Shown piece by piece: positions 1 to 30,169 of a DNA stretch of 64,000 nt (the first letter of the stretch is position 1; every line of letters starts with the position of its first letter). The translations under genes were made by a program, and so were the position numbers. The notes beneath the pieces are model-generated. The model made no database searches. It was given only the letters and a program-made list of their open reading frames with translations, and had not been told where the DNA came from. The stretch lies in contig CM082588.2 in the NCBI GenBank assembly GCA_040954595.2, forward strand, positions 10,090,844-10,154,843, written 5' to 3'. This stretch comes from Balanoglossus misakiensis (taxonomy: Eukaryota; Animalia; Hemichordata).

Positions 1-3000
1 CTGTATTTGGAAGCAACCATGAACATTTTACAACTATCCGTCGATCTACAGAGTCTAGTGGAAAACGTTCTTATGCGCATAGGCCTATATATGTGTTCTG
101 CGCATCACAACAGAATTCGGTAAACAAACGAGGTTGTTTGGAAGCAACCATGGAAATTTTACAACTATCCGTCGATCTACAGAGTCTAGTGGAAAAATGT
201 CGTATGCGCATAGGCCTATCATGTGTTCTGCGCCTCAAAACAGAATTCCGTAAATAAACAAGGCTGTTTGCAAGCAAACATGGAAATTTTACAGCTATCC
301 GTCGATCTACAGAGTCTAGTGGAAAACGTTCTTTTGCGCATAGGCCTATATATATGTTATGCGCATCACAACAGAAATCGGTAAATAAACGAGGCTGTAT
401 TTGGAAGCAACCATGGACATTTTACAACTATCCGTCGATCTACAGAGTCCTGTGGAAAACTTTTTAATGCGCATAGGCCTATTACGTGTTCTGCGCCTCA
501 CAACAGAATTCCGTAAATAAACGAGGCTGTTTGGAAGCAACCATGGAAATTTTACAACTATCCGTCGATCTACGGAGTCTGGTGGAAAACTTTCTTATGC
601 GCATAGGCCTATTACGTGTTCTGCGTCTCACAACAGAATTCGGTAAATAAACGAGGCTGTTTGGAAGCAACCATGGAAATTTTAGAACTATCTCTCGATC
701 TACAGAGTCTAGTGGAAAACGTTCTTATGCGCATAGGCCTATATATGTGTTCTGCGCATCACAACAGAATTCGTAAACAAACGAGGTTGTTTGGAAGCAA
801 CCATGGAAATTTTACAACTATCCGTCGATCTACAGAGTCTAGTGGAAAAATGTCTTATGCGCATTGGCCTATCATGTGTTCTGCGCCTCACAACAGAAAT
901 CAGTAAATAAACGAGGCTGTTTGGAAGCAACCATGGAAATTTTACAACTATCCGTCGATCTACAGAGTCTAGTGGAAACGTTCTTATGCGCATAGGCCTA
1001 TATATGTGTTCTGCGCATCACAACAGAATTTTGTAAACAAACGAGGCTGTGTTTGGTAGCAACCATGGACATTTTAGAACTATCTCTCGATCTACAGAGT
1101 CTATAGTGGAAAACTTTCTTATGCACATATGCCTATCTATGTGTTCTGCGCCTCACAACAGAATTCGGTAAATAAACGAGGCTGTTTGGAAGCAACCATG
1201 GAAATTTTACAACTATCCGTCGATCTACAGAGTCTAGTGGAAAACGTTATTATGCGCATAGGCCTATATATGTGTTCTGCGCATCACAACAGAATTTTGT
1301 AAACAAACGAGGCTGTGTTTGGAAGCAACCATGGACATTTTAGAACTATCTCTCGATCTACAGAGTCTATAGTGGAAAACTTTCTTATGCACATAGGCCT
1401 ATCTATGTGTTCTGTGCCTTACAACAGAATTCGGTAAATAAACGAGGCTGTTTGGAAGCAACCATGGAAATTTTACAACTATCCGTCGATCTACAGAGTC
1501 TAGTGGAAAACGTTATTATGCGCATAGGCCTATATATGTGTTCTGCGCATCACAACAGAATTTTGTAAACAAACGAGGCTGTGTTTGGAAGCAACCATGG
1601 ACATTTTAGAACTATCTCTCGATCTACAGAGTCTATAGTGGAAAACTTTCTTATGCACATATGCCTATCTATGTGTTCTGCGCCTCAAAACAGAATTCCG
1701 TAAATAAACGAGGCTGTTTGGAAGCAAACATGGAAATTTTAGAACTATCTCTCGATCTACAGAGTATAGTGGAAAACGTTCATATGCGCATAGGCCTATC
1801 TATGTGTTCTGCGCATCACAACAGAATTTTGTAAACAAACCAGGCTTTGTTTGGAAGCAACCATGGACATTTTAGAACTATTCGTCGATCTACGGAGTCT
1901 AGTGGAAAACTTTCTTATGCGCATAGGCATATGTATGTGTTCTACGCATCACAACAGAATTCGGTAAATAAACGAGGCTGTTTGGAAACAACCATGGAAA
2001 TTTTAGAACTATCCGTTGATCTAAAGTTGAAAAGTTTTTTATGCGCATAGGCCTATCTATGTGTTCTGCGCCTCACAACAGAAATCGGTAAATAAACGAG
2101 GCTGTTTGGAAGCAACCATGGAAATTTTACAACTATCTCTCGATCTACAGAGTCTATAGTGGAAAACTTTCTTATTCACATATGCCTATCTATGTGTTCT
2201 GCGCCTCAAAACAGAATTCCGCAAATAAACGAGGCTGTTTGGAAGCAAACATGGAAGTTTTAGAACTATCTCTCGATCTACAGTGTATGGTGGAAAACGT
2301 TCATATGCGCATAGGCCTATCTATGTGTTCTGCGCATCACAACAGAATTTTGTAAACAAACGAGGCTGTGTTTGGTAGCAACCATGGACATTTTAGAACT
2401 ATCTCTCGATCTACAGAGTCTATAGTGGAAAACTTTCTTATGCACATATGCCTATCTATGTGTTCTGCGCCTCACAACAGAATTCGGTAAATAAACGAGG
2501 CTGTTTGGAAGCAACCATGGAAATTTTACAACTATCCGTCGATCTACGGAGTCTGGTGGAAAACTTTCTTATGCGCATAGCCCTATATATGTGTTCTGCG
2601 CATCACAACAGAATTCGTAAACAAACGAGGTTGTTTGGAAGCAACCATGGAAATTTTACAACTATCCGTCGATCTACAGAGTCTAGTGGAAAAATGTCTT
2701 ATGCGCATTGGCCTATCATGTGTTCTGCGCCTCACAACAGAAATCAGTAAATAAACGAGGCTGTTTGGAAGCAACCATGGAAATTTTACAACTATCAGTC
2801 CATCTACAGAGTCTGGTGGAAAACTTTCTTATGCGCATAGGCCTATAACGTGTTCTGCGCCTAACAACAGAATTCGGTAAATAAACGAGGCTGTTTGGAA
2901 GCAACCATGGAAATTTTACAAAAATCCGTCGATCTACAGAGTCTGGTGGAAAACTTTCTTATGCGCATAGGCCTATTACGTGTTCTGCGCCTCACAACAG

Positions 3001-3804
3001 AATTCCGTAAATAAACGAGGCTGTTTGGAAGCAACCATGGAAATTTTACAACTATCCGTCGATCTACGGAGTCTGGTGGAAAACTTTCTTATGCGCATAG
3101 GCCTATTACGTGTTCTGCGTCTCACAACAGAATTCGGTAAATAAACGAGGCTGTTTGGAAGCAACCATGGAAATTTTAGAACTATCTCTCGATCTACAGA
3201 GTCTAGTGGAAAACGTTCTTATGCGCATAGGCCTATATATGTGTTCTGCGCATCACAACAGAATTCGTAAACAAACGAGGTTGTTTGGAAGCAACCATGG
3301 AAATTTTACAACTATCCGTCGATCTACAGAGTCTAGTGGAAAAATGTCTTATGCGCATTGGCCTATCATGTGTTCTGCGCCTCACAACAGAAATCAGTAA
3401 ATAAACGAGGCTGTTTGGAAGCAACCATGGAAATTTTACAACTATCCGTCGATCTACAGAGTCTAGTGGAAACGTTCTTATGCGCATAGGCCTATATATG
3501 TGTTCTGCGCATCACAACAGAATTTTGTAAACAAACGAGGCTGTGTTTGGTAGCAACCATGGACATTTTAGAACTATCTCTCGATCTACAGAGTCTATAG
3601 TGGAAAACTTTCTTATGCACATATGCCTATCTATGTGTTCTGCGCCTCACAACAGAATTCGGTAAATAAACGAGGCTGTTTGGAAGCAACCATGGAAATT
3701 TTACAACTATCCGTCGATCTACAGAGTCTAGTGGAAAACGTTATTATGCGCATAGGCCTATATATGTGTTCTGCGCATCACAACAGAATTTTGTAAACAA
3801 ACGA
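1..3804. repeat. Tandem satellite, ~130-133-bp monomer, left block (runs off the window start)
   Basis: GAAGCAACCATGG...CCGTCGATCTACAGAGTCTAGTGGAAAA...TATGCGCATAGGCCTA...CACAACAGAA...AAACGAGG recurs every ~131 bp. Identical translated ORFs at 616 and 3110 give a 2494-bp higher-order period. Confidence 0.98.
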
Positions 3805-3837
3805 AGTAGTATAGGTTGGAGCCGTAGCACTCTCATT

Positions 3838-4190
3838 TGGGGAGGAGGAGCTGAGGAGGAGCTGAGGAGGAGCTGAGGAGGAGGAGCTGAGGAGGAGCTG
3901 AGGAGGAGCTGAGGAGGAGCTGAGGAGGAGCTGAGGAGGAGGAGCTGAGGAGGAGGAGCTGAGGAGGAGGCGGAGGAGGAGGAGGAGGAGGAGCTGAGGA
4001 GGAGGAGGAGGAGGAGCTGAGGAGGAGGAGCTGAGGAGGAGGAGGAGGAGGAGGAGGAGGAGGAGGAGGAGGAGCTGAGGAGGAGGAGGAGGAGGAGGAG
4101 GAGGATCAGGAGGAGGAAGTGGAGGTGATGTTGGGAGGAGGCAGAGGAGGCAGTGGAGGTGATGTTGGGAGGAGGTGATGAGAGGCGAAG
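3838..4190 (+). repeat. (GAG)n / GAGGAGCT low-complexity tract inside the left terminal repeat (shorter mirror at ~17890-18137)
   Basis: Read directly; it produces the spurious poly-S/L/P ORFs. Confidence 0.95.
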
Positions 4191-4222
4191 GAGGCCTATC
4201 ACCCATGGCCGAGTTCGATTGT

Positions 4223-4350
4223 GACCCGAGTAGCGACCCGAGTAGCTGCCGCTGACGTCATCCCATTCTAGTTCGCATGCGCATAAGCGTAACCCGGGAG
4301 ATTTCAAAAGAACGATACTAGCGTAGCAACCCATGTAAACAAATATGGCG
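4223..4350 (+). promoter_or_regulatory. Putative promoter of the Harbinger transposase (mirror copy ~17730-17860)
   Basis: CpG-rich patch with GACCCGAGTAGC x2 (4223-4246), CRE TGACGTCA (4253-4260), NRF1-like CGCATGCGCA (4274-4283) and YY1-like AATATGGCG over the ATG at 4345. Confidence 0.5.
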
Positions 4351-6865
4351 ACTGAGTTCGAAGATTTCTTGTTTTTGCGTACTTTTTTTGAGGATTTTGA
4401 TGAATCTTTAGATTCTGCGGCAGTTTGGCAACTCCGAATAAATACTGCCATCATTGCCTCTCTGAGCTGTTTATTTTTGCGCCGAAAATACGTCCCGAAG
4501 ATACAAAATTTTGCCGAAGATATCGTACCTCAGTATTCTTTGCAGGATTTTTGCATCCATTTCCGTATTTGCAAAGATATCTTCACGTTTGTTCTGGGTC
4601 GCATCGCCCACAAACTGGCAATAGAACAATGCGGTGGCCGCCCTCAAGTGCCTCCAGAAAAACAATTATTGGTATGGATTTGGTACATGGTAAACCAGGA
4701 ATCCATCAGAGAAGTTGGTCACATTTTCAATCTCTCCAAATCCACAGTCCATTCAACAGTAAAGCGTGTCACAAAAGCTATCATTGCTGTGGTGAAAGAT
4801 GTAAGTACATTGTAAAGTACATTTTCTAGATTATCTTCATGGATTATTTTTGAATACAAATATATTTCAACATTTCAATAATATACAGTTGGTGATGCAT
4901 AATTTCAAGCTCTGTTTAATTATTGCTATCAAAGAACATATTAAAGGGGACAGTTAAAAATTATCCTTTAGCATTTTCTTTTAGTATTATGGTTCTCTGT
5001 GTCAACATTTTTTTTTCTACTGCACTCTGTATAGCAAGCTGAAATGTCCAATATTATGTTTGTCATAATTGCAGGTATGTGTAAAAATTAATGTTGAAAA
5101 ATGACTTATCAATATTTGTAGGTTATCAGGTGGCCAACACAAGAGCGACAGAGGGAGATTTCAAAAGAACGATACTAGCGTACGTAGCAACCCATGTAAA
5201 CAAATATGGCGACTGAGTTCGAAGATTTCTTGTTTTTGCGTACTTTTTTTTGAGCATTTTGATGAATCTTTAGATTCTGCGGCAGTTTGGCAACTCCGAA
5301 TAAATACTGCCATCATTGCCTCTCTGAGCTGTTTATTTTTGCGCCGAAAATACGTCCCGAAGATACAAAATTTTGCCGAAGATATCGTACCTCAGTATTC
5401 TTTGCAGGATTTTTGCATCCATTTCCGTATTTGCAAAGATATCTTCACGTTTGTTCTGGGTCGCATCGCCCACAAACTGGCAATAGAACAATGCGGTGGC
5501 CGCCCTCAAGTGCCTCCAGAAAAAAAAACAATTATTGGTATGGATTTGGTACATGGTAAACCAGGAATCCATCAGAGAAGTTGGTCACATTTTCAATCTC
5601 TCCAAATCCACAGTCCATTCAACAGTAAAGCGTGTCACAAAAGCTATCATTGCTGTGATGAAAGATGTAAGTACATTGTAAAGTACATTTTCTAGATTAT
5701 CTTCATGGATTATTTTTGAATACAAATATATTTCAACATTTCAATAATATACAGTTGGTAATGCATAATTTCAAGCTCTGTTTAATTATTGCTATCAAAG
5801 AACATATTAAAGGGGACAGTTAAAAATTATCCTTTAGCATTTTCTTTTAGTATTATGGTTCTCTGTGTCAACATTTTTTTTTCTACTGCACTCTGTATAG
5901 CAAGCTGAAATGTCCAATATTATGTTTGTCATAATTGCAGGTATGTGTAAAAATTAATGTTGAAAAATGACTTATCAATATTTGTAGGTTATCAGGTGGC
6001 CAACACAAGAGCGACAGAGGGAGATTTCACAGAGTTTTCAGCTTGATTGTGGTTTACCAGGTATAGTGGGCATTATTGATGGCACTCACATTAGACTGGC
6101 TGGTTGTATTGGTGGAGCTCAAGACTATATAAATAGGAAAGGTTATCCATCCATGCAACTTCAGGTAAGAAAATTCATTTTTTTAATTTTATAGAGAAAA
6201 ATTTATATCTTCCATCATGACATGTGTCATTCTTGAATTTAAAAATAAAACCTGTTGAAATGTTGGTTAGTCTCTGCCATTGAGAATTTTATCAAGTTAC
6301 ATAAATGTAGGAGATTCTTGACAAAAAGTGTCCTTTTTTTCAGGTCATTGTTGATGATAATCTATTAATCACCAATGCATACACTGGATGGCCTGGTTGT
6401 ACACACGATGCCCGTGTCCTTCGAAATTCTTCCCTGTACACAAGACTGGAGACTAATGAAGTAACTATGGGTCCTGGGAGATACATCATTGGTGATTCTG
6501 CATACCCTTTGAGAGAATGGCTTATCACTCCCTTCAGAGACAATGGATTTTTAACCATTCAGCAGCGCAGGTTCAATCGCGTCTTTTCATCCTGCCGTCA
6601 AAATGTTGAACGATCAATTGGGCATTTAAAGGGTCGTGTTAGGAGGCTCAGAGAATTGCCTATGCATAGTCCTGAAGATGTGTGTGAGACTATAATTTCT
6701 GGCTGTATTCTTCACAATCTACGTATTATCCATCATGATGATGTGGAAAACTATATTGATTTAGATCCACAGCATATTGATGATCCAAACCAATATCCAA
6801 ATGTTCATGTGAATGCACCTGGGGGTATTGCCAGAAGACAGCAACTCATGAATCATTTACATTAA
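4345..6865 (+). CDS. PIF/Harbinger DDE transposase (HARBI1-like, DDE_Tnp_4), left arm. Exons 4345-4800, 5988-6164 and 6344-6865 give 384 aa if the duplicated segment is spliced out
   Basis: Motifs VIRWP, GIIDGTHI, YINRKGYPS, WPGCTHDARV, GDSAYPL, RQNVERSIGHLKGR and CILHN; N-terminal HTH (SIREVGHIFNLSKSTVH); phase-0 GT-AG introns. Confidence 0.88.
5153..6018 (+). pseudogene. Tandem duplicate of transposase 5' UTR, exon 1, intron 1 and start of exon 2; frameshifted
   Basis: Near-identical to 4296-5152, with GGGAGATTTCA at all three junctions. An extra T in the poly-T (~5244-5251) and extra As (~5520-5528) break the frame. Confidence 0.9.
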
Positions 6866-7823
6866 GAGTGTCAACATCATTAGGTATCTTAATGGATTGC
6901 CTTTCACACATGAAAATGAAACCTTTTTCTTGATTTAGTTATAAAAATAAGTTATGCACTGGGATAAATGTTTTTTTTTATCATCTTGTTATGCATATTG
7001 TGTATTTGAAGTGTTAAGTGTGACTCTGGACATGAAATATTTATTGATTAAAATATATATGGTTAGGTCGACATTGAAGGATTCAAAGCCTGACTTTCTA
7101 TTGCTGGTAACATTTTAAATGTACAATCTTACCTGGATAAAAAAAAAAAACACACTTTATGTTTGTATATGATATAACAATTTATTGTAAAGGTTCAAAT
7201 GTTTTTTAAAGATAAAGAATTCACTTTTATCCATCAATAATAATAATAGAATAAATATTATAGACAATAAATACATTCATAAGTTATGCAATAATTACTT
7301 AATAAATAAAGAGTATCAATATATTAACTATAAACATTGAAAATGACTTTGCATTTTTACATTTGTTTTTCATAAGTTATGATGTAATAATTTCTAGTAA
7401 TAAATAAAAAGTATCACATATTATTAACTATAAACATTGGTAATGACTTTTGAATTTTTACATTTGTTTTTAAAGTTCAACGTCTTCATACATATAATAC
7501 ATACATACCATACATACATAAATGCCAACAGCAATGCTAATAAATTATTTGAGATTTTCAAAATATTTTTTTAAGGTTATCATGTGTACATGGAATAATT
7601 CTGATTAAAAATTGAGTTTGTCAAATAAAAAAAAAAGAATCATCACGAACATGTAGTATGAACATATAACACTCCAATAAAATTTTAACAATTGTCCAGA
7701 AATTCAGATACTTCTACAACTATAACAGTATCAATGAAAACGTTTAGTAACAATAAACTTTATGAAATATTTCATTTAGATAAAACATTTTTGAATTTTG
7801 TCAAATTTATTATACGGTAATCT

Positions 7824-8639
7824 TTAGTTCTTATTGACAGACTGCTCGTATAAATCCAACATTCTATCCATTCTTCTCATTTTCTCTGTATGTTGTTTTT
7901 CCATCATCCCAAACAAATCATCATTTTTCTTTTCCATTTGTGTAATTGCAGCCATCAATTTATCTTGTGGGGATACTCTGTCGGATATTTTGTTTCTTTT
8001 TCTGTGTGTACGTGGTGTTGCATGTGTGTCAGATGTGCTTGGTGTTATCTCTGTAGGTTCTGTAGTCGTCATTTCTGTTGTTGTTTCTGTCACTGTGTCT
8101 GTGTTATTTTTACTTTTGTCGGTCGTCAAATCAAGCGAATCCATCGTACATGTGGGCTGTGTCGATTCCTTCATCCCATATAAATTATCAAACTCATTGA
8201 AATGTCGACACGTTTTCCTTTCTGCTCCAGTTTTCTTTCGGTTATCAATCACTTCCATATAATTTTTTTTTTAAATTTTTCCATTTATCCCTTGCCTGTG
8301 TGACAGACACAGAAACCCCCGCCTCTCCCATTTTAGACACAATGGACTGCCACAACTTCTCATGTCTAACACTAGTTTTAAATAAATCTTCCATGTCAGA
8401 CCTCAACACTACAAGTAAATTTTCTTCTCTATCATTCCAAATGTGAATTCTAGCTACGTTTTCTGTGCTGTGTGATGTTGTTCCTGCTTTACTTCGTTCA
8501 TGTGGTTGCTGAGTGTTTGTGTTCTTTTCACCTTGTCCTTGACTGCTTTGGTTCTGGTCGAGGTCTTGTACCTTTTCCTTTTGTTTTCCGTTGTGTGCTG
8601 CAATAGCTTGTGAAATGATAGCTTGTTTGATGTTAGAGT
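7824..8639 (-). pseudogene. Myb/SANT-like (trihelix) DNA-binding protein, Harbinger partner ORF, last exon, left arm; +1 frameshift
   Basis: Mirror of 14189-15030 with the WNDREENLLV...LWQSI...QARDKWKNLKK signature. A 10-A run stands where 9 would keep the frame. Convergent with the transposase. Confidence 0.85.
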
Positions 8640-9599
8640 CTGTTAAATATAAGAATGGGTATAGTCAAGACAAGTTTATTTCTATTTGCTCACCAAAACA
8701 TGATTCTATCAGATTAATTACTGTTGAACTTGAATCCTTAGTACATAAAACCAAAAATGAAATTATTTAATTATAGTTCAGCTTTGTAGAGATATTTAGA
8801 CATTTTACCACTTTTAGATGACCAACACAGAAAATATTTGTTTATAAACATAAGTGACGTGAGCGGACAATGCCTTAGACACACAGTTTAGAAATCATGC
8901 ACTGGGCCTCGTAATTTATGCAAATTAGACCATGAGCCAGTAGGGGTTTACCTCCCCCCACCCCCCCGGGGGAATTTTTGAGACAATGTTTTTTCTGAAA
9001 GCCTATCATATACTGAGTAAAATTCACTTTGTTTGCCATCTGGGCACCGGGGCGTTTTCGAGTTATTGGCTTCTAAATTATATTGGGTAACGTATGAAGA
9101 AAAGCCTAAAAGTGCATATAAATTGACGTAGGCGGGGGGGGGGGGGGGGGGTAAATTAGTCTTGTAAAATACTGTCTCTCTGAATGTATACCTAGAACAA
9201 CAGGGAAGTATTTGGTATCAAAAGAAAGCTTAATAAACAAGCTTTCCATTAATTACAAAATTAAAGTGATATGACAAATCATGACATCATAGTGACGTCA
9301 TAAGTCAAAATACCCTTACGAAAATGGTGTTCTGTTCACCTATAATTTGTATAAATGTGAGGTTTTGCAAAACACGTCTCTGAGCAATTGTACTGATGAA
9401 AACTGTGATGTGTTTGGTATCAACAGAAAGCTGATTGAGTAAAGTATCTAATTATTGCAAAATATTGATATAATAATCAATTACGTCATCATTACGTCAT
9501 ACTTCCAAGTACCCTTACCAATTAGTGACTATGATGACAAGTTATTACCCTAGGAGATAGGTGCCTTTAAAAAAAAAAAATTGGTAAGGAAGGTTTGTG

Positions 9600-11900
9600 A
9601 AGTCCATTCTATGTAAAAAATGGTGCTGATTCCAAAAAAAAAAAGCAGTCTTATTGACCCCACCCAAGACAAAATTGCCATTTTGGCACTTTTTAATCCA
9701 AAAAAAGGTCATTTTTAGAAAACACTAAAAACACACTGTTTTCGTCACATTCGAAGATCTGATGACATATGATATGCCTATTCTATGTAAAATTTGGTTG
9801 ATATTACGAAAAAAGCAGTCTGATTGACCCCAAACGAGACAAAATTGCCTTTTTGACCATTTTTTGCCCAAAAAGGTCATTTTTAGAAAACACTAAAAAC
9901 ACACTGTTTTCGTCACATTCGAAGATCTGATGACATATGATATGCCTATTCTATGTAAAATTTGGTTGATATTACGAAAAAAGCAGTCTGACTGACCCCA
10001 AACGAGACAAAATTGCCTTTTTGACCATTTTTTGCTCAAAAACGTCATTTTTAGACAAAACTGAAAAACACACTCTTCTCTTCATATTGATTGATTTGAT
10101 GATATATGGAAAGTCAATTCTATGTGTAAAATGGTGACTATAAAACATAAAGCAATCTTTTTGACCCCAATCAATACAAAAATGCCATTTTTGGCCTCAA
10201 AAATATGGCCAAAAATGGCATTTTTACAAAAAATAAAAAAATAAAAACAAACTGTTTTCTTCATATTCAGAGATCTGATTATGTATGAAAAGTCCATTCT
10301 GTGTATAAAAAATCTGATTGACCCCATTCTAGTCAAAATTGCGTTTTTGGCAATTTATTGCCTAAAAAGACCTATTTAAGACAAATTTATCATTTTAAAC
10401 ATTTTCTAGAGAAAAAAATGTTTGCATTTGGAGATAGCCCAAATTGAACTCATAATGATGATGACACAGCGACGACAGTAAAAGAAGTTATACGAATTGA
10501 ACCAAAGTCGCGTCGATGAATCTAAACACGTCGCCCAGGACCAAGCATTAAACATGATACAGGCGACAAAAAGACAGGCACTGCACATGGCAAAGTCCCA
10601 AATATTCACTTAGAGCATCTCCAAATTGAAACGTCAAGGAATTTAAGAGTTTTTATTATATTTATTAGGTTTAAACCCACATTGATATTACGAAAAAGGC
10701 AGTCTAACTGACCCCACCCAAGACAAAATTGCCGTTTTGGCACTTTTTAACCCAAAAAACGTCATTTTTAGACAAAACTGAAAACACACTCTTCTCTTCA
10801 TATTGATTGATTTGATGATATATGGAAAGTCAATTCTATGTGTAAAATGGTGACTATAAAACATAAAGCAATCTTTTTGACCCCAATCAATACAAAAATG
10901 CCATTTTTGGCCTCAAAAATATGGCCAAAAATGGCATTTTTACAAAAAAAATAAATAAAAACAAACTGTTTTCTTCATATTCAGAGATCTGATTATGTAT
11001 GAAAAGTTTATGCTATGTAAAATAGTTCTGATTCCAGAAATAGCAGCCTTATTAACCCCCACTCAAGGCAAATGTGCCATTTTTGCCACTTTTTGCCCCA
11101 AAAATGTCATTTTTAGAAAACACTCAAAACTTATATATTTTCTTCACTTTCGGAGATCTGATAATGTATTGTATACCCACCTTGTGTAAAATTTGGTAGG
11201 TATTCAAAAAAAGTAGGTTTATTGGCGCCACTCAAGATTAAAGTGCGTTTTTTGGCAAGTTTTTGCCCAAAAAGGCCATTTTAAGAAATAAGCAAACGTT
11301 TTTCTTTGTATTTGGAAATTTGATCATGTATGAAAAGTCCATTTATTGAAAAATTGCTGTTGACTCTAGAAAACGCAATCTTATTGATCTCAATGAAGAT
11401 GAAAATACTTTTTGCCCAAAAAGGGTCATTTTTAGAAAATACTAAAAACAAGCTATTTGTTTCCCTTTGGTGATCTAATAATAAATAAAAGTCCATTCTA
11501 TCTTAAAATTAGCGATTTTTCCAAAAAAGCACTCTTACTGACTCCACAGAGGGAAAAAATGCCATTTTGGCCACTTTGCTCAAAAAAGGTAACTGTTTGA
11601 AAACTTCTTTCTTTATTTTTCAGATCTTATGATGTACGGAGAAGGTCCATTTTTGTTGAATGGGAGCCGATTCCAAAAAAAAAAAAAAAAATCTTTTCAG
11701 CCCTACAAAATTGTCATTTTGGCCATTTTTGGTCAAAAAGGTCATTCCAAGAAAAAAAAAAATGAAAAACAAGCTGTTTTCTTTGTATTTAAATGTTTGA
11801 TTATGAATGGAAAGTCCATTTTTTGCAAAAAAAAAATATGCTGATACCAACGCAACAGTCTTATTAAGACCCCACTCAATACAAAATTGCCACTAAGCCA
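9600..11900 (+). repeat. ~168-170-bp tandem repeat array within the element, interrupted by unique 10380-10683; inverted copy ~12650-13420
   Basis: GCAGTC..TTGACCCC..GACAAAATTGCC recurs at 9645, 9815 and 9983 and again from ~10700, becoming degenerate. Confidence 0.85.
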
Positions 11901-13904
11901 TCTTCTAGTCAACAATTGTCTTTTTCAGAAAACAAAATAATTGGTGGTTTTTTTTGCCTTTTGAGTTTTGATGTTATATTTGCATATTTAAAATGTCATA
12001 CCATATGATATCAGTTGAATTGATGATATTGAAAGGCAGAGTTGCCACAATTTGGCACATTTAGCCCAAAATGGAACTCAACAATAAAACGAGACGATCC
12101 ATGTATTCACACTGTATACTATAAGTCGGTTATACATGGTATAATTGTTTTAAGTACATCTATACCAGCTCCGGATAGATTGTTAACATTTATCCTCTTC
12201 GTTCTGAATACAAAATCAGAAATTATATTATATCATGATACCTCCGTCATTTTGATTGGACAGGGGTGCAATCCCACGATGCTAAATACTCAATAGAGCT
12301 AAAACTGGCCCCTGAACTAGCACACAACGGGAAAATGTGGGTTTAAACCTAATAAATATAATAAAAACTCTTAAATTCCTTGACGTTTCAATTTGGAGAT
12401 GCTCTAAGTGAATATTTGGGACTTTGCCATGTGCAGTGCCTGTCTTTTTGTCGCCTGTATCATGTTTAATGCTTGGTCCTGGGCGACGTGTTTAGATTCA
12501 TCGACGCGACTTTGGTTCAATTCGTATAACTTCTTTTACTGTCGTCGCTGTGTCATCATCATTATGAGTTCAATTTGGGCTATCTCCAAATGCAAACATT
12601 TTTTTCTCTAGAAAATGTTTAAAATGATAAATTTGTCTTAAATAGGTCTTTTTAGGCAATAAATTGCCAAAAACGCAATTTTGACTAGAATGGGGTCAAT
12701 CAGATTTTTTATACACAGAATGGACTTTTCATACATAATCAGATCTCTGAATATGAAGAAAACAGTTTGTTTTTATTTTTTTATTTTTTGTAAAAATGCC
12801 ATTTTTGGCCATATTTTTGAGGCCAAAAATGGCATTTTTGTATTGATTGGGGTCAAAAAGATTGCTTTATGTTTTATAGTCACCATTTTACACATAGAAT
12901 TGACTTTCCATATATCATCAAATCAATCAATATGAAGAGAAGAGTGTGTTTTTCAGTTTTGTCTAAAAATGACGTTTTTGAGCAAAAAATGGTCAAAAAG
13001 GCAATTTTGTCTCGTTTGGGGTCAGTCAGACTGCTTTTTTCGTAATATCAACCAAATTTTACATAGAATAGGCATATCATATGTCATCAGATCTTCGAAT
13101 GTGACGAAAACAGTGTGTTTTTAGTGTTTTCTAAAAATGACCTTTTTGGGCAAAAAATGGTCAAAAAGGCAATTTTGTCTCGTTTGGGGTCAATCAGACT
13201 GCTTTTTTCGTAATATCAACCAAATTTTACATAGAATAGGCATATCATATGTCATCAGATCTTCGAATGTGACGAAAACAGTGTGTTTTTAGTGTTTTCT
13301 AAAAATGACCTTTTTTTGGATTAAAAAGTGCCAAAATGGCAATTTTGTCTTGGGTGGGGTCAATAAGACTGCTTTTTTTTTTTGGAATCAGCACCATTTT
13401 TTACATAGAATGGACTTCACAAACCTTCCTTACCAATTTTTTTTTTTTAAAGGCACCTATCTCCTAGGGTAATAACTTGTCATCATAGTCACTAATTGGT
13501 AAGGGTACTTGGAAGTATGACGTAATGATGACGTAATTGATTATTATATCAATATTTTGCAATAATTAGATACTTTACTCAATCAGCTTTCTGTTGATAC
13601 CAAACACATCACAGTTTTCATCAGTACAATTGCTCAGAGACGTGTTTTGCAAAACCTCACATTTATACAAATTATAGGTGAACAGAACACCATTTTCGTA
13701 AGGGTATTTTGACTTATGACGTCACTATGATGTCATGATTTGTCATATCACTTTAATTTTGTAATTAATGGAAAGCTTGTTTATTAAGCTTTCTTTTGAT
13801 ACCAAATACTTCCCTGTTGTTCTAGGTATACATTCAGAGAGACAGTATTTTACAAGACTAATTTACCCCCCCCCCCCTACGTCAATTTATATGCACTTTT
13901 AGGC

Positions 13905-13941
13905 TTAGGGTTAGGGTTAGGGGTTAGGGTTAGGGTTAGGG
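13905..13941 (+). repeat. Interstitial telomeric tract (TTAGGG)6
   Basis: TTAGGG TTAGGG TTAGGGG TTAGGG TTAGGG TTAGGG read directly. Confidence 0.97.
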
Positions 13942-14188
13942 ACTGTGTGTCTAAGGCATTGTCCGCTCACGTCACTTATGTTTATAAACAAATATTTTCT
14001 GTGTTGGTCATCTAAAAGTGGTAAATGTCTAAATATCTCTACAAAGCTGAACTATAATTAAATAATTTCATTTTTGGTTTTATGTACTAAGGATTCAAGT
14101 TCAACAGTAATTAATCTGATAGAATCATGTTTTGGTGAGCAAATAGAAATAAACTTGTCTTGACTATACCCATTCTTATATTTAACAG

Positions 14189-15030
14189 ACTCTAACATCA
14201 AACAAGCTATCATTTCACAAGCTATTGCAGCACACAACGGAAAAACAAAAGGAAAAGGTACAAGACCTCGACCAGAACCAAAGCAGTCAAGGACAAGGTG
14301 AAAAGAACACAAACACTCAGCAACCACATGAACGAAGTAAAGCAGGAACAACATCACACAGCACAGAAAACGTAGCTAGAATTCACATTTGGAATGATAG
14401 AGAAGAAAATTTACTTGTAGTGTTGAGGTCTGACATGGAAGATTTATTTAAAACTAGTGTTAGACATGAGAAGTTGTGGCAGTCCATTGTGTCTAAAATG
14501 GGAGAGGCGGGGGTTTCTGTGTCTGTCACACAGGCAAGGGATAAATGGAAAAATTTAAAAAAAATTATATGGAAGTGATTGATAACCGAAAGAAAACTGG
14601 AGCAGAAAGGAAAACGTGTCGACATTTCAATGAGTTTGATAATTTATATGGGATGAAGGAATCGACACAGCCCACATGTACGATGGATTCGCTTGATTTG
14701 ACGACCGACAAAAGTAAAAATAACACAGACACAGTGACAGAAACAACAACAGAAATGACGACTACAGAACCTACAGAGATAACACCAAGCACATCTGACA
14801 CACATGCAACACCAAGCACATCTGACACACATGCAACACCACGTACACACAGAAAAAGAAACAAAATATCCGACAGAGTATCCCCACAAGATAAATTGAT
14901 GGCTGCAATTACACAAATGGAAAAGAAAAATGATGATTTGTTTGGGATGATGGAAAAACAACATACAGAGAAAATGAGAAGAATGGATAGAATGTTGGAT
15001 TTATACGAGCAGTCTGTCAATAAGAACTAA
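14189..15030 (+). pseudogene. Myb/SANT-like (trihelix) protein, last exon, right arm; frameshifted
   Basis: Acceptor TTTAACAG at 14181-14188. ORFs 14225-14578 and 14545-15030 join across an 8-A run. In-frame 27-bp duplication (PSTSDTHAT) and C-terminal coiled coil. Confidence 0.85.
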
Positions 15031-16083
15031 AGATTACCGTATAATAAATTTGACAAAATTCAAAAATGTTTTATCTAAATGAAATATTTCATAAAGTTTA
15101 TTGTTACTAAACGTTTTCATTGATACTGTTATAGTTGTAGAAGTATCTGAATTTCTGGACAATTGTTAAAATTTTATTGGAGTGTTATATGTTCATACTA
15201 CATGTTCGTGATGATTTTTTTTTTTTTTTTATTTGACAAACTCAATTTTTAATCAGAATTATTCCATGTACACATGATAACCTTAAAAAATATTTTGAAA
15301 ATCTCAAATAATTTATTAGCATTGCTGTTGGCATTTATGTATGTATGGTATGTATGTATTATATGTATGAAGACGTTGAACTTTAAAAACAAATGTAAAA
15401 ATTCAAAAGTCATTACCAATGTTTATAGTTAATAATATGTGATACTTTTTATTTATTACTAGAAATTATTACATCATAACTTATGAAAAACAAATGTAAA
15501 AATGCAAAGTCATTTTCAATGTTTATAGTTAATATATTGATACTCTTTATTTATTAAGTAATTATTGCATAACTTATGAAAAACAAATGTAAAAATGCAA
15601 AGTCATTTTCAATGTTTATAGTTAATATATTGATACTCTTTATTTATTAAGTAATTATTGCATAACTTATGAATGTATTTATTGTCTATAATATTTATTC
15701 TATTATTATTATTGATGGATAAAAGTGAATTCTTTATCTTTAAAAAACATTTGAACCTTTACAATAAATTGTTATATCATATACAAACATAAAGTGTGTT
15801 TTTTTTTTTTTATCCAGGTAAGATTGTACATTTAAAATGTTACCAGCAATAGAAAGTCAGGCTTTGAATCCTTCAATGTCGACTTAACCATATATATTTT
15901 AATCAATAAATATTTCATGTCCAGAGTCACACTTAACACTTCAAATACACAATATGCATAACAAGATGATAAAAAAAACATTTATCCCAGTGCATAACTT
16001 ATTTTTATAACTAAATCAAGAAAAAGGTTTCATTTTCATGTGTGAAAGGCAATCCATTAAGATACCTAATGATGTTGACACTC

Positions 16084-17736
16084 TTAATGTAAATGATTCA
16101 TGAGTTGCTGTCTTCTGGCAATACCCCCAGGTGCATTCACATGAACATTTGGATATTGGTTTGGATCATCAATATGCTGTGGATCTAAATCAATATAGTT
16201 TTCCACATCATCATGATGGATAATACATAGATTGTGAAGAATACAGCCAGAAATTATAGTCTCACACACATCTTCAGGACTATGCATAGGCAATTCTCTG
16301 AGCCATCTAACACGACCCTTTAAATGCCCAATTGATCGTTCAACATTTTGACGGCAGGATGAAAAGACGCGATTGAACCTGCGCTGCTGAATGGTTAAAA
16401 ATCCATTGTCTCTGAAGGGAGTGATAAGCCATTCTCTCAAAGGGTATGCAGAATCACCAATGATGTATCTCCCAGGACCCATAGTTACTTCATTAGTCTC
16501 CAGTCTTGTGTACAGGGAAGAATTTCGAAGGACACGGGCATCGTGTGTACAACCAGGCCATCCAGTGTATGCATTGGTGATTAATAGATTATCATCAACA
16601 ATGACCTGAAAAAAAGGACACTTTTTGTCAAGAATCTCCTACATTTATGTAACTTGATAAAATTCTCAATGGCAGAGACTAACCAACATTTCAACAGGTT
16701 TTATTTTTAAATTCAAGAATGACACATGTCATGATGGAAGATATAAATTTTTCTCTATAAAAAAAAAAAATGAATTTTCTTACCTGAAGTTGCATGGATG
16801 GATAACCTTTCCTATTTATATAGTCTTGAGCTCCACCAATACAACCAGCCAGTCTAATGTGAGTGCCATCAATAATGCCCACTATACCTGGTAAACCACA
16901 ATCAAGCTGAAAACTCTGTGAAATCTCCCTCTGTCGCTCTTGTGTTGGCCACCTGATAACCTACAAATATTGATAAGTCATTTTTCAACATTAATTTTTA
17001 CACATACCTGCAATTATGACAAACATAATATTGGACATTTCAGCTTGCTATACAGAGTGCAGTAGAAAAAAAAATGTTGACACAGAGAACCATAATACTA
17101 AAAGAAAATGCTAAAGGATAATTTTTAACTGTCCCCTTTAATATGTTCTTTGATAGCAATAATTAAACAGAGCTTGAAATTATGCATTACCAACTGTATA
17201 TTATTGAAATGTTAAAATATATTTGTATTCAAAAATAATCCATGAAGATAATCTAGAAAATGTACTTTACAATGTACTTACATCTTTCATCACAGCAATG
17301 ATAGCTTTTGTGACACGCTTTACTGTTGAATGGACTGTGGATTTGGAGAGATTGAAAATGTGACCAACTTCTCTGATGGATTCCTGGTTTACCATGTACC
17401 AAATCCATACCAATAATTGTTTTTCTGGAGGCACTTGAGGGCGGCCACCGCATTGTTCTATTGCCAGTTTGTGGGCGATGCGACCCAGAACAAACGTGAA
17501 GATATCTTTGCAAATACGGAAATGGATGCAAAAATCCTGCAAAGAATACTGAGGTACGATATCTTCGGCAAAATTTTGTATCTTCGGGACGTATTTTCGG
17601 CGCAAAAATAAACAGCTCAGAGAGGCAATGATGGCAGTATTTATTCGGAGTTGCCAAACTGCCGCAGAATCTAAAGATTCATCAAAATCCTCAAAAAAGT
17701 ACGCAAAAACAAGAAATCTTCGAACTCAGTCGCCAT
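16084..17736 (-). pseudogene. Harbinger transposase, right arm. Exons 17736-17282, 16960-16784 and 16605-16084; -1 frameshift near codon 14
   Basis: Mirror of the left copy without the tandem duplication. Poly-T is 6 nt rather than 7, making exon 1 455 bp. Confidence 0.88.
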
Positions 17737-18172
17737 ATTTGTTTACATGGGTTGCTACGCTAGTATCGTTCGTTTGAAATCTCCCGGGTTACGCTTATGC
17801 GCATGCGAACTAGAATGGGATGACGTCAGCGGCAGCTACTCGGGTCGCTACTCGGGTCACAATCGAACTTGGTGATGGGTGATAGGCCTCCTTCGCCTCT
17901 CATCACCTCCTCCCAACATCACCTCCACTGCCTCCTCTGCCTCCTCCCAACATCATGCTTTGCAGAAAGTCCACCAATCAAAGCACGTTCCATATATACT
18001 TAGCCATATCTCAATTTTCCACCAACTTAGGGGACCATGTCTGCCTCCTCCTCCTCCTCAGCTCCTCCTCCTCCTCAGCTCCTCCTCCTCCTCCTCCTCC
18101 TCAGCTCCTCCTCAGCTCCTCCTCAGCTCCTCCTCCCCAAATGAGAGTGCTACGGCTCCAACCTATACTACT

Positions 18173-21100
18173 AAACGAGGCTGTGTTTGGAAGCAACCAT
18201 GGACATTTTAGAACTATCTCTCGATCTACAGAGTCTATAGTGGAAAACTTTCTTATGCACATAGGCCTATCTATGTGTTCTGTGCCTTACAACAGAATTC
18301 GGTAAATAAACGAGGCTGTTTGGAAGCAACCATGGAAATTTTACAACTATCCGTCGATCTACAGAGTCTAGTGGAAAACGTTATTATGCGCATAGGCCTA
18401 TATATGTGTTCTGCGCATCACAACAGAATTTTGTAAACAAACGAGGCTGTGTTTGGAAGCAACCATGGACATTTTAGAACTATCTCTCGATCTACAGAGT
18501 CTATAGTGGAAAACTTTCTTATGCACATATGCCTATCTATGTGTTCTGCGCCTCAAAACAGAATTCCGTAAATAAACGAGGCTGTTTGGAAGCAAACATG
18601 GAAATTTTAGAACTATCTCTCGATCTACAGAGTATAGTGGAAAACGTTCATATGCGCATAGGCCTATCTATGTGTTCTGCGCATCACAACAGAATTTTGT
18701 AAACAAACCAGGCTTTGTTTGGAAGCAACCATGGACATTTTAGAACTATTCGTCGATCTACGGAGTCTAGTGGAAAACTTTCTTATGCGCATAGGCATAT
18801 GTATGTGTTCTACGCATCACAACAGAATTCGGTAAATAAACGAGGCTGTTTGGAAACAACCATGGAAATTTTAGAACTATCCGTTGATCTAAAGTTGAAA
18901 AGTTTTTTATGCGCATAGGCCTATCTATGTGTTCTGCGCCTCACAACAGAAATCGGTAAATAAACGAGGCTGTTTGGAAGCAACCATGGAAATTTTACAA
19001 CTATCTCTCGATCTACAGAGTCTATAGTGGAAAACTTTCTTATTCACATATGCCTATCTATGTGTTCTGCGCCTCAAAACAGAATTCCGCAAATAAACGA
19101 GGCTGTTTGGAAGCAAACATGGAAGTTTTAGAACTATCTCTCGATCTACAGTGTATGGTGGAAAACGTTCATATGCGCATAGGCCTATCTATGTGTTCTG
19201 CGCATCACAACAGAATTTTGTAAACAAACGAGGCTGTGTTTGGTAGCAACCATGGACATTTTAGAACTATCTCTCGATCTACAGAGTCTATAGTGGAAAA
19301 CTTTCTTATGCACATATGCCTATCTATGTGTTCTGCGCCTCACAACAGAATTCGGTAAATAAACGAGGCTGTTTGGAAGCAACCATGGAAATTTTACAAC
19401 TATCCGTCGATCTACGGAGTCTGGTGGAAAACTTTCTTATGCGCATAGCCCTATATATGTGTTCTGCGCCTCACAACAGAAATCAGTAAATAAACGAGGC
19501 TGTTTGGAAGCAACCATGGAAATTTTACAACTATCAGTCCATCTACAGAGTCTGGTGGAAAACTTTCTTATGCGCATAGGCCTATAACGTGTTCTGCGCC
19601 TAACAACAGAATTCGGTAAATAAACGAGGCTGTTTGGAAGCAACCATGGAAATTTTACAACTATCCGTCGATCTACAGAGTCTAGTGGAAAAATGTCTTA
19701 TGCGCATTGGCCTATCATGTGTTCTGCGCCTCACAACAGAAATCAGTAAATAAACGAGGCTGTTTGGAAGCAACCATGGAAATTTTACAACTATCAGTCC
19801 ATCTACAGAGTCTGGTGGAAAACTTTCTTATGCGCATAGGCCTATAACGTGTTCTGCGCCTAACAACAGAATTCGGTAAATAAACGAGGCTGTTTGGAAG
19901 CAACCATGGAAATTTTACAAAAATCCGTCGATCTACAGAGTCTGGTGGAAAACTTTCTTATGCGCATAGGCCTATAACGTGTTCTGCGCCTAACAACAGA
20001 ATTCGGTAAATAAACGAGGCTGTTTGGAAGCAACCATGGAAATTTTACAACTATCCGTCGATCTACAGAGTCTAGTGGAAAACGTTATAATGCGCATAGG
20101 CCTATCTATGTGTTATGCGCATCACAACAGAAATCGGTAAATAAACGAGGCTGTATTTGGAAGCAACCATGAACATTTTACAACTATCCGTCGATCTACA
20201 GAGTCTAGTGGAAAACGTTCTTATGCGCATAGGCCTATATATGTGTTCTGCGCATCACAACAGAATTCGGTAAACAAACGAGGTTGTTTGGAAGCAACCA
20301 TGGAAATTTTACAACTATCCGTCGATCTACAGAGTCTAGTGGAAAAATGTCGTATGCGCATAGGCCTATCATGTGTTCTGCGCCTCAAAACAGAATTCCG
20401 TAAATAAACAAGGCTGTTTGCAAGCAAACATGGAAATTTTACAGCTATCCGTCGATCTACAGAGTCTAGTGGAAAACGTTCTTTTGCGCATAGGCCTATA
20501 TATATGTTATGCGCATCACAACAGAAATCGGTAAATAAACGAGGCTGTATTTGGAAGCAACCATGGACATTTTACAACTATCCGTCGATCTACAGAGTCC
20601 TGTGGAAAACTTTCTAATGCGCATAGGCCTATTACGTGTTCTGCGCCTCACAACAGAATTCCGTAAATAAACGAGGCTGTTTGGAAGCAAACATGGAAAT
20701 TTTACAGCTATCCGTCGATCTACAGAGTCTAGTGGAAAACGTTCTTTTGCGCATAGGCCTATATATGTGTTATGCGCATCACAACAGAAATCGGTAAATA
20801 AACGAGGCTGTATTTGGAAGCAACCGTGGACATTTTACATCTATCCGTCGATCTACAGAGTCTTGTGGAAAACTTTCTAATGCGCATAGGTCTATTACGT
20901 GTTCTGCGCCTCACAACAGAATTCGGTAAATAAACGAGGCTGTTTGGAAGCAACCATGGAAATTTTAGAACTATCCGTCGATCTACAGAGTCTAGTGGAA
21001 AAATGTCTTATGCGCATAGGCCTATCATGTGTTCTGCGCCTCACAACAGAATTTTGTAAACAAACGAGGCTGTGTTTGGAAGCAACCATGGAAATTTTAG

Positions 21101-24100
21101 AACTATCTCTCGATCTACAGAGTCTATAGTGGAAAACTTTCTTATGCACATATGCCTATCTATGTGTTCTGCGCCTCAAAACAGAATTCCGTAAATAAAC
21201 GAGGCTGTTTGGAAGCAAACATGGAAATTTTAGAACTATCTCTCGATCTACAGAGTATAGTGGGAAACGTTCATATGCGCATAGGCCTATATATGTGTTC
21301 TGCGCATCACAACAGAATTTTGTAAACAAACGAGGCTTTGTTTGGAAGCAACCATGGACATTTTAGAACTATCCGTCGATCTACAGAGTCTAGTGGAAAA
21401 ATTTCTTATGCGCATGGGCCTATCATGTGTTCTGCGCCTCACAACAGAAATCGGTAAATAAACGAGGCTGTTTGGAAGCAACCATGGAAATTTTAGAACT
21501 ATCCGTCGACCTTCAGCGTCTAGTGGAAAACTTTTTTATGCGCATAGGCCTATCTATGTGTTCAGAGCCTCACAACAGAAATCGGTAAATAAACGAGGCT
21601 GTTTGGAAACAACCATGGAAATTTTAGAACTATCCGTCGATCTACAGAGTCTAGTGGAAAAATGTCTTATGCGCATAGGCCTATCATGTGTTCTGCGCCT
21701 CACAACAGAAATCGGTAAATAAACGAGGCAGTTTGGAAGCAACCATGGAAATTTTACAGCTATCCGTCGATCTACAGAGTCTAGTGGAAAACGTTCTTAT
21801 GCGCATAGGCCTATATATGTGTTCTGCGCATCACAACAGAATTTTGTAAACAAACGAGGCTGTGTTTGGAAGCAACCATGGAAATTTTAGAACTATCTCT
21901 CGATCTACAGAGTCTATAGTGGAAAACTTTCTTATGCACATATGCCTATCTATGTGTTCTGCGCCTCAAAACAGAATTCCGTAAATAAACGAGGCTGTTT
22001 GGAAGCAAACATGGAAATTTTAGAACTATCTCTCGATCTACAGAGTATAGTGGGAAACGTTCATATGCGCATAGGCCTATATATGTGTTCTGCGCATCAC
22101 AACAGAATTTTGTAAACAAACGAGGCTTTGTTTGGAAGCAACCATGGACATTTTAGAACTATCCGTCGATCTACAGAGTCTAGTGGAAAAATTTCTTATG
22201 CGCATGGGCCTATCATGTGTTCTGCGCCTCACAACAGAAATCGGTAAATAAACGAGGCTGTTTGGAAGCAACCATGGAAATTTTAGAACTATCCGTCGAC
22301 CTTCAGCGTCTAGTGGAAAACTTTTTTATGCGCATAGGCCTATCTATGTGTTCAGAGCCTCACAACAGAAATCGGTAAATAAACGAGGCTGTTTGGAAAC
22401 AACCATGGAAATTTTAGAACTATCCGTCGATCTAAAAGGTCTAGTGGAAAACGTTCTTATGCGCATAGGCCTATCTATGTGTTCTGCGCATCACAACAGA
22501 ATTTTGTAAACAAACGAGGCTGTGTTTTGAGGCAACCATGTATATTTTAGAACTATCTCTCGATCTACAGAGTCTAGTGGAAAACTTTCTTATGCGCATA
22601 GGCCTAGCTATGTGTTCTGCGCATTACAACAGAATTTTGTAAACAAACGAGGTTGTGTTTGGAATCAACCATGGAAATTTTAGAACTATCCGTCGATCTA
22701 CAGTGAAAAAGTTTCTTATGCGCATAGGCCTATCATGTGTTCTGCGCATCACTGCAGAATTTTGTAAACAAACGAGGCTGTGTTTGGAAGCAACCATGGA
22801 AATTTTAGAACTATCCGTCGATCTATAGAGTCTAGTGGAAAACGTTCTTATGCGCATAGGCCTATCTATGTGTTCTGCGCATTACAACAGAATTTGGAAA
22901 TAAACGAGGCTGTGTTTGGAAGCAACCATGGAAATTTTAGAACTATCCGTCGATCTGCAGAGTCTAGTAAAAAACTTTCTTATGCGCATAGGCCTATCAC
23001 GTGTTCTGCGCCTCACAACAGAAATCGGTAAATAAACGAGGCTGTTTGGATGCAACCATGGAAATTTTAGAACTATCCGTCGATCTACAGAGTCTAGTGG
23101 AAAAGTTTCTTATGCACATAGGCCTATCTATGTGATCTGCGCATCACAGCAGAATTCGGTAAATAAACAAGGCTGTTTGAAATCAACCATGGACATTTTA
23201 GAACTATCCGTCGATCTACAGAGTCTAGTGGAAAACTTTCTTATGCGCATAGGCCTAGCTATGTGTTCTGCGCATCACAAAAGAATTTTGTAAACAAACG
23301 AGGCTGTGTTTGGAAGCAACCATGGAAATTTTAGAACTATCTCTCGATCTACAGAGTCTATGGAAATTTTAGAACTATCCGTCGATCTACAGTGAAAAAG
23401 TTTCTTATGCGCATAGGCCTATCATGTGTTCTGCGCATCACTGCAGACTTTTGTAAACAAACGAGACTGTGTTTGGAAGCAACCTTGGAAATTTTAGAAC
23501 TATCTCTCGATCTACAGAGTCTAGTGGAAAACTTTCTAATGCGCATAGGCCTATCACGTGTTCTGCGCCTCACAACATAATTCGGTAAATAAACGAGGCT
23601 GTTTGGAAGCAAGTATGGATATTTTAGAACTATCCGTCGATCTACAGAGTCTAGTGGAAAAATTCTTATGCGCATAGGCCTATCATGTGTTCTGCGCATC
23701 ACAACAGAATTCATTAAATAAACGAGGCTGTTTGGAAGCAACCATGGACATTTTAGAACTATCCGTCGATCTACAGAGTCTAGTGGAAAAATTTCTTATG
23801 CGCATAGGCCTATCATGTGTTCTGCGCCTCACAACAGAAATCGGTAAATTAACGAGGCTGTTTGGAAGCAACCATGGCAATTTTAGAACTATCCGTCGAT
23901 CTACAGAGTCTAGTGGAAAACTTTCTTATGCGCATAGGCCTATCACGTGTTCTGCGCCTAACAACAGAATTCGGTAAATAAACGAGGCTGTTTGGAAGCA
24001 ACTATGGAAATTTTAGAACTACCCGTCGATCTACAGAGTCTAGTGGAAAAATTTCTTATGCGCATAGTCCTATCATGTGTTCTGCGCATCACAACAGAAT

Positions 24101-29441: not shown

Positions 29442-29764
29442 ATATTAATTAATTCATTAAGGCATATAAACGATATAGCTAGCCTATTGTGATAGGAATG
29501 GGCTAACACCCTTGTCATATAAACTTTGGCGAAGCGATCCCAAGCTCAGCTAAGGTAGATGGGAGGGACCTGAATCACATGTGCCCATCATAATGAAAGC
29601 TGCCAACCCTCTTAGAATGATACTACGGCCTATACGTTGATCACCTGATCGCATCGCCCTGTCACACTTGGCTATGGGCTACTGTTCATGTATGATAAAG
29701 GGGTTATTACACTAAGTTTGGTCGATAACGTGACGCATCCTCGTGATGTCCATAATATGGACAT

Positions 29765-30044
29765 CCCTTACGAAAAAAGGGCCTGCTGCAAACTCCTCCC
29801 GCAAATCTGCAGCAGGATTCTGCGAACTCACTGCAAACTGCTGCTGCAAAGTGGCAAACAGTCCTGATTTTACCATGCAAATTAGGGGACTTGCAAATTT
29901 GTTGCAAACTTCCAGCAACAAGATTTTGAATACTGCAGTGAGTTCACAGGAATTTGAATACTGCAGTGAGTTCACAGCAATCAAGATTGCCACCTTGAAA
30001 ATTTGAACATTGCAGTGAGTTTGCAGCAAGACAATTAACTAGGG
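29765..30044. mobile_element. Small MITE (CCCT...AGGG) nested in the 2.4-kb element
   Basis: Inverted TGCTGCAAACTC / GAGTTTGCAGCA subterminal motifs and internal CTGCAG repeats. Confidence 0.55.
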
Positions 30045-30169
30045 GTACCATTGAACCACCCACCCCCACCCCCCATAAAACCTCAGAGACAAGCAAACTA
30101 TAATTAACAGTTTTTATTTTTAAAATAATCTATTTTAATCACAGGGTTAAGAAATCTAAAAAATCAACA

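Follow-up and report, generated by a model that had tools for sequence, protein, structure and literature searches.

A 64,000-nucleotide stretch of Balanoglossus misakiensis contig CM082588.2, referred to below as the window, was analysed around a 14,368-bp insertion located at positions 3805–18172 in 130/133-bp satellite DNA. The insertion was found to be a palindrome in which two arms, about 99.7% identical, are separated by a 1,650-bp spacer and in which Polinton/Maverick-type ends enclose a Harbinger-type transposon in each arm. It is probably a gene-less fold-back derivative of a Polinton, integrated in trans with a one-ended Harbinger passenger; the helper, the order of events and the fold-back are parts of this reading that we infer. 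The insertion itself is real and young, and it is not an autonomous Polinton.

The element starts with AGTAGTATAGG, the first bases being AGTAGT, and finishes with CCTATACTACT, the last ones being ACTACT. The outermost 82 bp of the two ends form a 100% inverted match, and the (AGT)2//(ACT)2 motif that marks Polintons/Mavericks lies within these terminal inverted repeats (TIRs). The target-site duplication (TSD) AAACGA has the Polinton length of 6 bp. Because AAACGA recurs 75 times in the 10.6 kb of satellite (one per monomer), the 6-bp stagger is proven by the flanks, which are in register, and not by the hexamer itself. The empty site was identical with the element flanks over 844 consecutive bases on the left and 1,297 on the right; 11 satellite positions share the local 28-mer, and only the one at 1305–1310 matched in 300 of 300 bases on the left and 600 of 600 on the right. 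The inverted ends, the TSD and the empty site described by an earlier note, made from the letters of this stretch alone, were therefore all verified. No second copy of any part of the element was detected within the window. The surrounding satellite (1–3804 and 18173–25004) is organised as a 2,494-bp higher-order repeat, the adjacent copies of which are identical over more than 1 kb.

The combined ORF (open reading frame) and Pfam search revealed no pPolB, integrase, ATPase, protease or major or minor capsid gene in the element, in agreement with the earlier note. None of the 36 ORFs of at least 45 aa outside the Harbinger copies reached the Pfam cut-off; the longest inner one encoded 90 aa, and a single sub-threshold match to a DNA ligase was noticed (E 0.007). 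In the available text of PMC8097293, the combination of (AGT)2//(ACT)2 with a 6-bp TSD is the commonest end of vertebrate Mavericks, with (AG)3//(CT)3 as the alternative motif, and TSDs of 6 bp for Polintons and of 0–4 bp for PHIS transposons are given in PMC10045372. These data are in line with the earlier assignment of the AG..CT ends and 6-bp TSD to a Polinton and not to a Harbinger element. Since PHIS transposases leave 0–4-bp TSDs, the Harbinger enzyme does not appear to have made the outer junctions; their likeliest cause, judging from the end motif and the TSD lengths, is the trans-acting Polinton integrase that the earlier note had proposed. Both junctions are in register with one satellite copy and show the 6-bp stagger, which supports the integration of the element as a unit.

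The aligned bases of the arms were identical in 527 of 531, 3,351 of 3,358 and 1,573 of 1,573 positions in three segments, a divergence of about 0.2%. A gradient of divergence between the inner (0/1,573) and outer (7/3,358) parts was considered and dropped, the numbers being too small. Apart from homopolymer lengths and a few substitutions, five larger features distinguish the arms: the longer GAG run of the left arm as opposed to an 88-bp segment in the right one, a tandem duplication of about 860 bp in the left arm, duplications of 93 bp and 27 bp in the right arm, and seven TTAGGG repeats on the right where the left arm has 214 bp. The TTAGGG patch begins at a TTAGGC look-alike and presumably resembles the outcome of telomerase-assisted break repair. 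At 10683/10684 the sequence enters a 168-bp repeat in mid-unit with a 2-bp microhomology, whereas at 12333/12334 it continues into unique sequence; because of the mid-unit jump and the microhomology, 10683/10684 was taken as the putative switch point. The unique content of the element is about 8 kb, and its full length is reached by the inverted duplication of a 6–7-kb half. The near-Polinton length, which the earlier note had taken as that of a shell ferrying a two-gene module, exists because this half was mirrored.

The Harbinger-type transposon sits in each arm, and the two copies make up 60% of the element. Pfam matches to DDE_Tnp_4 (E 1.8e-24) and to Myb_DNA-bind_4 (E 5e-12 and 2e-11) identified the transposase and the Myb/SANT second ORF typical of PIF/Harbinger. 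The domains of the only cargo recognised by the earlier note were confirmed in this way; the palindrome had been overlooked, and because of it the pair is present twice. Each of the three exons of the left transposase copy is open, and together they comprise 384 codons (152 + 59 + 173), the gene being interrupted by the tandem duplication; they are 74–87% identical to P0001, a 384-aa protein of Ptychodera flava. In a tree of exon 3, for which 53 of the top 60 matches were retained by coverage, the transposase of the element and the P. flava protein were sisters (100/99) among HARBI1-like proteins of marine invertebrates, a placement that by itself would suggest a marine invertebrate, perhaps a hemichordate, as the probable host. 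The Harbinger affiliation assumed earlier was upheld at this level; the tree was built without named PHIS reference families and does not give the PHIS subgroup. The homopolymer frameshifts in the right transposase and in both Myb copies may be real or may be assembly errors.

The sole homologue found for the Myb protein was P0121, also from P. flava, and its first 39 residues had no match in the window (best E 0.13). By sequence comparison, neither arm retains Myb exon 1 or the second end of Harbinger. No convincing partner of the end at 4207 was found in the window, and no pair of Harbinger TIRs with a 2–3-bp TSD could be delimited. A candidate near 8921–8931, with 7 of 12 letters like those of the first end, was rejected, as Myb exon 1 was not located inside it as required. 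The passenger is clipped on the Myb side and is not an intact two-gene module.

Between the Harbinger copies, the non-coding DNA totals about 5 kb, with 200-bp and 168-bp repeats and no domain. The stretch is present in five public sequencing runs, and contigs from these were compared over 13420–18200 and 17840–18186; runs X1, X2 and X3 come from one sample (S1), possibly not the source of the window, and are therefore not independent. Summed contig depth in X1, which is no copy number, was 9,810–14,351 over the inner segment versus 135–530 over most of Harbinger, and this 20–70-fold difference suggests a separate family. The inner segment is apparently a separate, unclassified high-copy repeat, the outer 50 bp or so of which may be the remaining Harbinger intron. 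Run X4 (organism B) contained short, repeat-like pieces only. The outermost end of the element and the TTAGGG patch received no contig coverage in this comparison, nor, in X3, did the Myb gene.

Contigs of X1, X2 and X3 depart from the window exactly at the Harbinger end and continue into ...CGGCC and other flanks. Five loose-end rows at 17787–17869 had five different next triplets, two of the rows being related ends with a changed letter. In X1 and X2 there is also a contig in which the shell unit, at 17875, abuts not Harbinger but 17 other letters and a further unit copy (depth of 585 and 1,947, respectively); the subterminal region of the shell therefore resembles a short tandem array that received the Harbinger insertion, and its sequence occurs in several forms among the contigs. 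The shell therefore exists free of Harbinger and the Harbinger end joins other flanks, contrary to the earlier view of both as one ferrying unit. Free Harbinger copies were among the checks proposed by the earlier note, and the end was indeed seen in other surroundings. One X1 contig extends 633 letters past 13951, the limit of the match on the Myb side, with no second piece among those listed, which would fit the presence elsewhere of a complete, longer Harbinger. That the family has a history of its own is shown by a diverged copy with an internal deletion, which skips 14145–16978.

According to the favoured reading, Harbinger would have entered a subterminal repeat unit of a non-autonomous, Polinton-ended shell, some 400 bp from the shell terminus, and would have lost its Myb-side end where the high-copy, repeat-rich segment now adjoins; being one-ended, the transposon would be unable to leave by itself. 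A template switch at 10683/10684 would then have replaced the other half with an inverted copy, so that both termini would carry the same origin and integrase site, much as they do in snap-back defective genomes of viruses. A Polinton integrase provided in trans would have placed the unit in the satellite DNA, duplicating 6 bp of the target, and the arms would later have gained the few substitutions, the tandem duplications and the telomere-repeat patch. Hairpin or sense/antisense transposase RNA is predicted for such a structure, as a substrate for A-to-I editing and small-RNA silencing.

Dense clusters of A-to-G changes are the pattern left by ADAR hyper-editing of double-stranded RNA. Run X3, listed as 'DNA?', is likely to be RNA rather than genomic DNA because its depth was flat (2–9) and its last bin, in which X1 reached 72,982, was empty. 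Of the 32 changes listed in X3, 26 were A>G (11) or T>C (15), the corresponding numbers being 4 of 31 for X1 and 12 of 45 for X2. Dense A-to-G clusters were observed over the transposase (window 16884–17501) on the strand antisense to it, intron included. Ten A>G changes fell in 17356–17407, with zero support in X1 and X2, and three X3 loose ends, compared by eye, represented the window sequence with 9 of 14, 10 of 12 and 7 of 8 adenines as G, two without any other change and one with two more changes near its far end. For the sense strand, editing would be suggested by the T>C count by itself, positions being given for 2 of the 15 changes, both of them left-arm alleles. A transcript through the palindrome would yield both classes of change, and sense and antisense RNA from the convergent genes at any copy would do so equally. 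The X3 clusters are a lead from one run, not assignable to this locus or strand pair.

Several observations weigh against the favoured reading. The Harbinger/shell junction was bridged by no contig in X1 (0/4) or X2 (0/9), and in X3 a contig crosses without substitution from the altered Harbinger end to the shell, where it follows an array longer than that of the window; given this contig, the composite may be a family and not a one-off. The outer 300–400 bp differ structurally between the arms, the 88-bp form forming a separate contig in both X1 and X2, and the two forms fit the joining of two different sister ends equally as well as a single fold-back. No Harbinger TSD is readable because the second end is missing. 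No gene-bearing Polinton with this end came to light in the viral and metagenome contigs scanned: a 26-mer of the element end had 0 matches in metagenome contigs. The one viral-contig match of a 20-mer of the end (22 bp shared; L001, 10001–10022) was set aside as chance, as it lies in a phage gene, inside a 2,355-aa tail-fibre-like ORF. The transposase profile gave 17 pattern matches and 0 confirmed ones in viral contigs. Among metagenome contigs, 352 transposase relatives were detected and 80 kept; none of these 80 loci matched the non-coding DNA of the element and none of the 88 ORFs beside the transposases had a Polinton domain. The latter result counts for the favoured reading, in what is a weak test, the loci being short (mean of 3.9 kb) and distant (28–48%). 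The Myb protein had a tblastn match at 14 of the 80. In one metagenome contig (L002), a related Harbinger possesses an end of its own at 9770–9793, which starts with GGCTG and lies about 230 bp upstream of its transposase, a layout like that in the window.

The strongest rival, although rather unlikely, is that a Polinton or its shell integrated first and was remodelled in place by Harbinger and repeat insertions, gene loss and an inverted duplication through break repair between the two terminal repeats, without ever having been mobile as a palindrome. The arms do bear repair scars (the TTAGGG patch and the duplications of about 860, 93 and 27 bp), their outer ends differ, and 96% of vertebrate Mavericks have decayed in place according to the available text of PMC8097293. 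However, the identity of the satellite flanks and the near-identity of the arms leave little time for the insertions, the complete loss of genes and a 6-kb duplication. Moreover, the shell adjoining the altered Harbinger end in the X3 contig is of a different form, so at least this junction exists in a second form.

The same contig, as a second form of the composite, speaks for a stable family of non-autonomous Polinton shells that spread a working Harbinger gene pair as selected cargo, possibly between hosts. This is an improbable account, even though the open exons of the left transposase together equal its nearest homologue in length, some of the frameshifts, being situated in homopolymer runs, could be errors of the assembly, and butterfly polintons without polB and with LINE (long interspersed nuclear element) or gypsy cargo appear to be still mobile, as described in the accessible part of 10.1101/2025.02.07.637071. 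Against it, both arms lack Myb exon 1 as well as one end of Harbinger; the shell and the Harbinger end each occur without the other, and the inverted duplication favours double-stranded RNA, hyper-edited sequence having been seen.

It is very improbable that the outer ends belong to an integrase family other than that of Polintons that makes 6-bp TSDs, or that the Harbinger transposase itself acted on them. The Polinton link is made by a 6-bp end motif and the TSD length alone, and IS3EU/GingerRoot elements also leave 6-bp TSDs, but their termini are TA..TA or TG..CA in the available text of PMC10045372, in contrast to the AG..CT of the element. Handling by Harbinger disagrees with the PHIS TSD lengths given above (PMC10045372), with the G or A start of most PHIS elements and their TWA, CWG, TNA, ANT or AT targets as listed in the accessible part of PMC4482050, and with the grouping of the transposase among ordinary HARBI1-like proteins. 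An assembly or fold-back read artefact is hardly credible. In its favour, homopolymer lengths account for many of the differences between the arms, the X1–X3 contigs lack several right-arm variants and no contig among those listed spans the element. Against it, true substitutions and the five larger features separate the arms, and both outer-end forms exist in separate contigs; a fold-back read would lead back, in inverted orientation, to the flank it came from, whereas here the two ends meet a single satellite copy, in register and with the 6-bp stagger.

Table 1. Positions of the parts of the element and of its target site in the window.
Feature	Position	Strand	Remarks
Left TSD copy, AAACGA	3799..3804	+	Direct sequence and flank comparison
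Right TSD copy, AAACGA	18173..18178	+	Direct sequence and flank comparison
Empty site	1305..1310	+	Preceding higher-order satellite copy, 2,494 bp upstream; flank identity
Left palindrome arm, 6,879 bp	3805..10683	+	
Right palindrome arm, 5,839 bp	12334..18172	-	5,618 matches, 18 mismatches, partly gap-edge alignment noise
Unpaired spacer, 1,650 bp	10684..12333	.	168-bp repeat array, then about 400 bp of unique sequence
Left shell end, 402 bp	3805..4206	+	(AGT)2 terminus, GAG/GAGCT run, subterminal unit
Right shell end, 298 bp	17875..18172	-	Identical terminus, shorter GAG run, extra 88-bp segment (17956-18043)
Inner non-coding segment	8888..12333	.	Two units of about 200 bp and 168-bp tandem arrays (9600-10385, 10682-11934)
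Seven TTAGGG telomere-type repeats	13899..13941	+	In place of left-arm 8888-9101 (214 bp), at the Harbinger/inner-segment junction
Harbinger left end, GGCCGAGTTCGA	4207..4218	+	Followed by repeated ACCC motifs; other flanks in contigs
Right-arm copy of the Harbinger end	17863..17874	-	3 substitutions among the first 5 bases
Harbinger transposase, left copy	4345..6865	+	Exons 4345-4800, 5988-6164, 6344-6865
Tandem duplication of the transposase 5' part, about 860 bp	4296..6029	+	Join at an 11-bp microhomology
Harbinger transposase, right copy	16084..17736	-	Frameshift in a T run early in exon 1
Myb/SANT gene, left copy	7824..8640	-	Second exon only; A-run frameshift; convergent with the transposase
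Myb/SANT gene, right copy	14188..15030	+	Second exon only; frameshifts in two A runs

Other repeats were observed elsewhere in the window. In the region 38765–47607, a large DNA transposon is represented by disrupted ORFs that give weak matches to DUF6589 and CXC and include a nuclease-like motif; it looks like an Academ-type element and is interrupted by LINE-like ORF fragments (40696–42263) and a small inverted-repeat element (42777–43580). Inverted arrays of a 23-bp unit, spanning about 1.5 kb at 26631–28147, are similar to a fold-back-type non-autonomous element, and the short inverted-repeat pairs at 29701–32094, 32711–33041 and 57108–57396 are typical of small non-autonomous transposons.

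The element was compared with known systems as far as the available portions of the cited sources describe them. It shares with intact vertebrate Mavericks its ends, the 6-bp TSD and a length within their 12.7–24.6 kb, and it differs in being gene-less, in having gained its length by self-duplication and in repeats of 5.8–6.9 kb, which far exceed the TIRs of 46–1,447 bp; the Maverick end repeats have been linked with protein-primed initiation (PMC8097293). Butterfly polintons without polB, with a LINE or gypsy element inside and with 2-kb TIRs that double genes, resemble it in the foreign transposon inside Polinton ends, the doubled TIR genes and the need of help in trans (10.1101/2025.02.07.637071). 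They retain several polinton genes and carry retroelement cargo, whereas the element has no polinton gene, a DNA transposon as cargo and a palindrome reaching nearly to the centre. Because of these polintons transposon cargo as such is not new, and the undescribed system suggested by the earlier note had in this respect been reported already (10.1101/2025.02.07.637071).

The passenger resembles PHIS transposons in its DDE transposase and convergent Myb/SANT gene, its short G-starting end and its size of about 4–5 kb, and differs from them in having one end, a Myb gene without exon 1 and no readable TSD (PMC4482050), so it was not placed in PIF/Harbinger, NuwaI or NuwaII. Like maize Mu killer, the element carries an inverted duplication that covers a transposon end and the transposase and could give a long hairpin RNA; Mu killer is fixed in place and its silencing of MuDR was demonstrated, whereas silencing by the element is predicted, and the duplication lies here between Polinton-type ends and in an animal (PMC3440606). 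Snap-back genomes of adeno-associated virus (AAV) share the inverted duplication of an end, usable termini, helper dependence and potential double-stranded RNA; AAV is a single-stranded DNA virus using other enzymes, and the element is known from its DNA sequence alone (PMC8235507). Mu killer and the AAV genomes would be functional analogues of the element, not relatives. No report of gene-less, whole-length palindromic Polintons or of a Harbinger inside a Polinton was found in the mainly non-subscription literature searched, supplements and Repbase lying outside the search. What may be new is the palindromic Polinton-ended shell and the mirrored passenger as a possible source of double-stranded RNA; a new ferrying system is not shown by the element.

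The replication mode of Polintons has been deduced from their gene content and termini rather than seen directly. Protein-primed strand-displacement copying would be expected to leave, as a snap-back by-product, a gene-less, whole-length palindrome whose ends and TSD are correct, and such palindromes would be a genomic trace of this process; if the element were a product of decay in place, it would represent an unusual but local rearrangement. A bolder and doubtful extension is that palindromic gene-less Polinton satellites constitute a mobile class of their own, in which a mirrored transposon becomes a travelling hairpin-RNA killer locus that silences this Harbinger family. Palindromes of this kind would also help to map the minimal cis-acting ends, which here take up at most about 400 bp, with 82 bp perfectly shared, and the nested Harbinger would provide a natural test of cargo movement by such elements and of silencing by mirroring.

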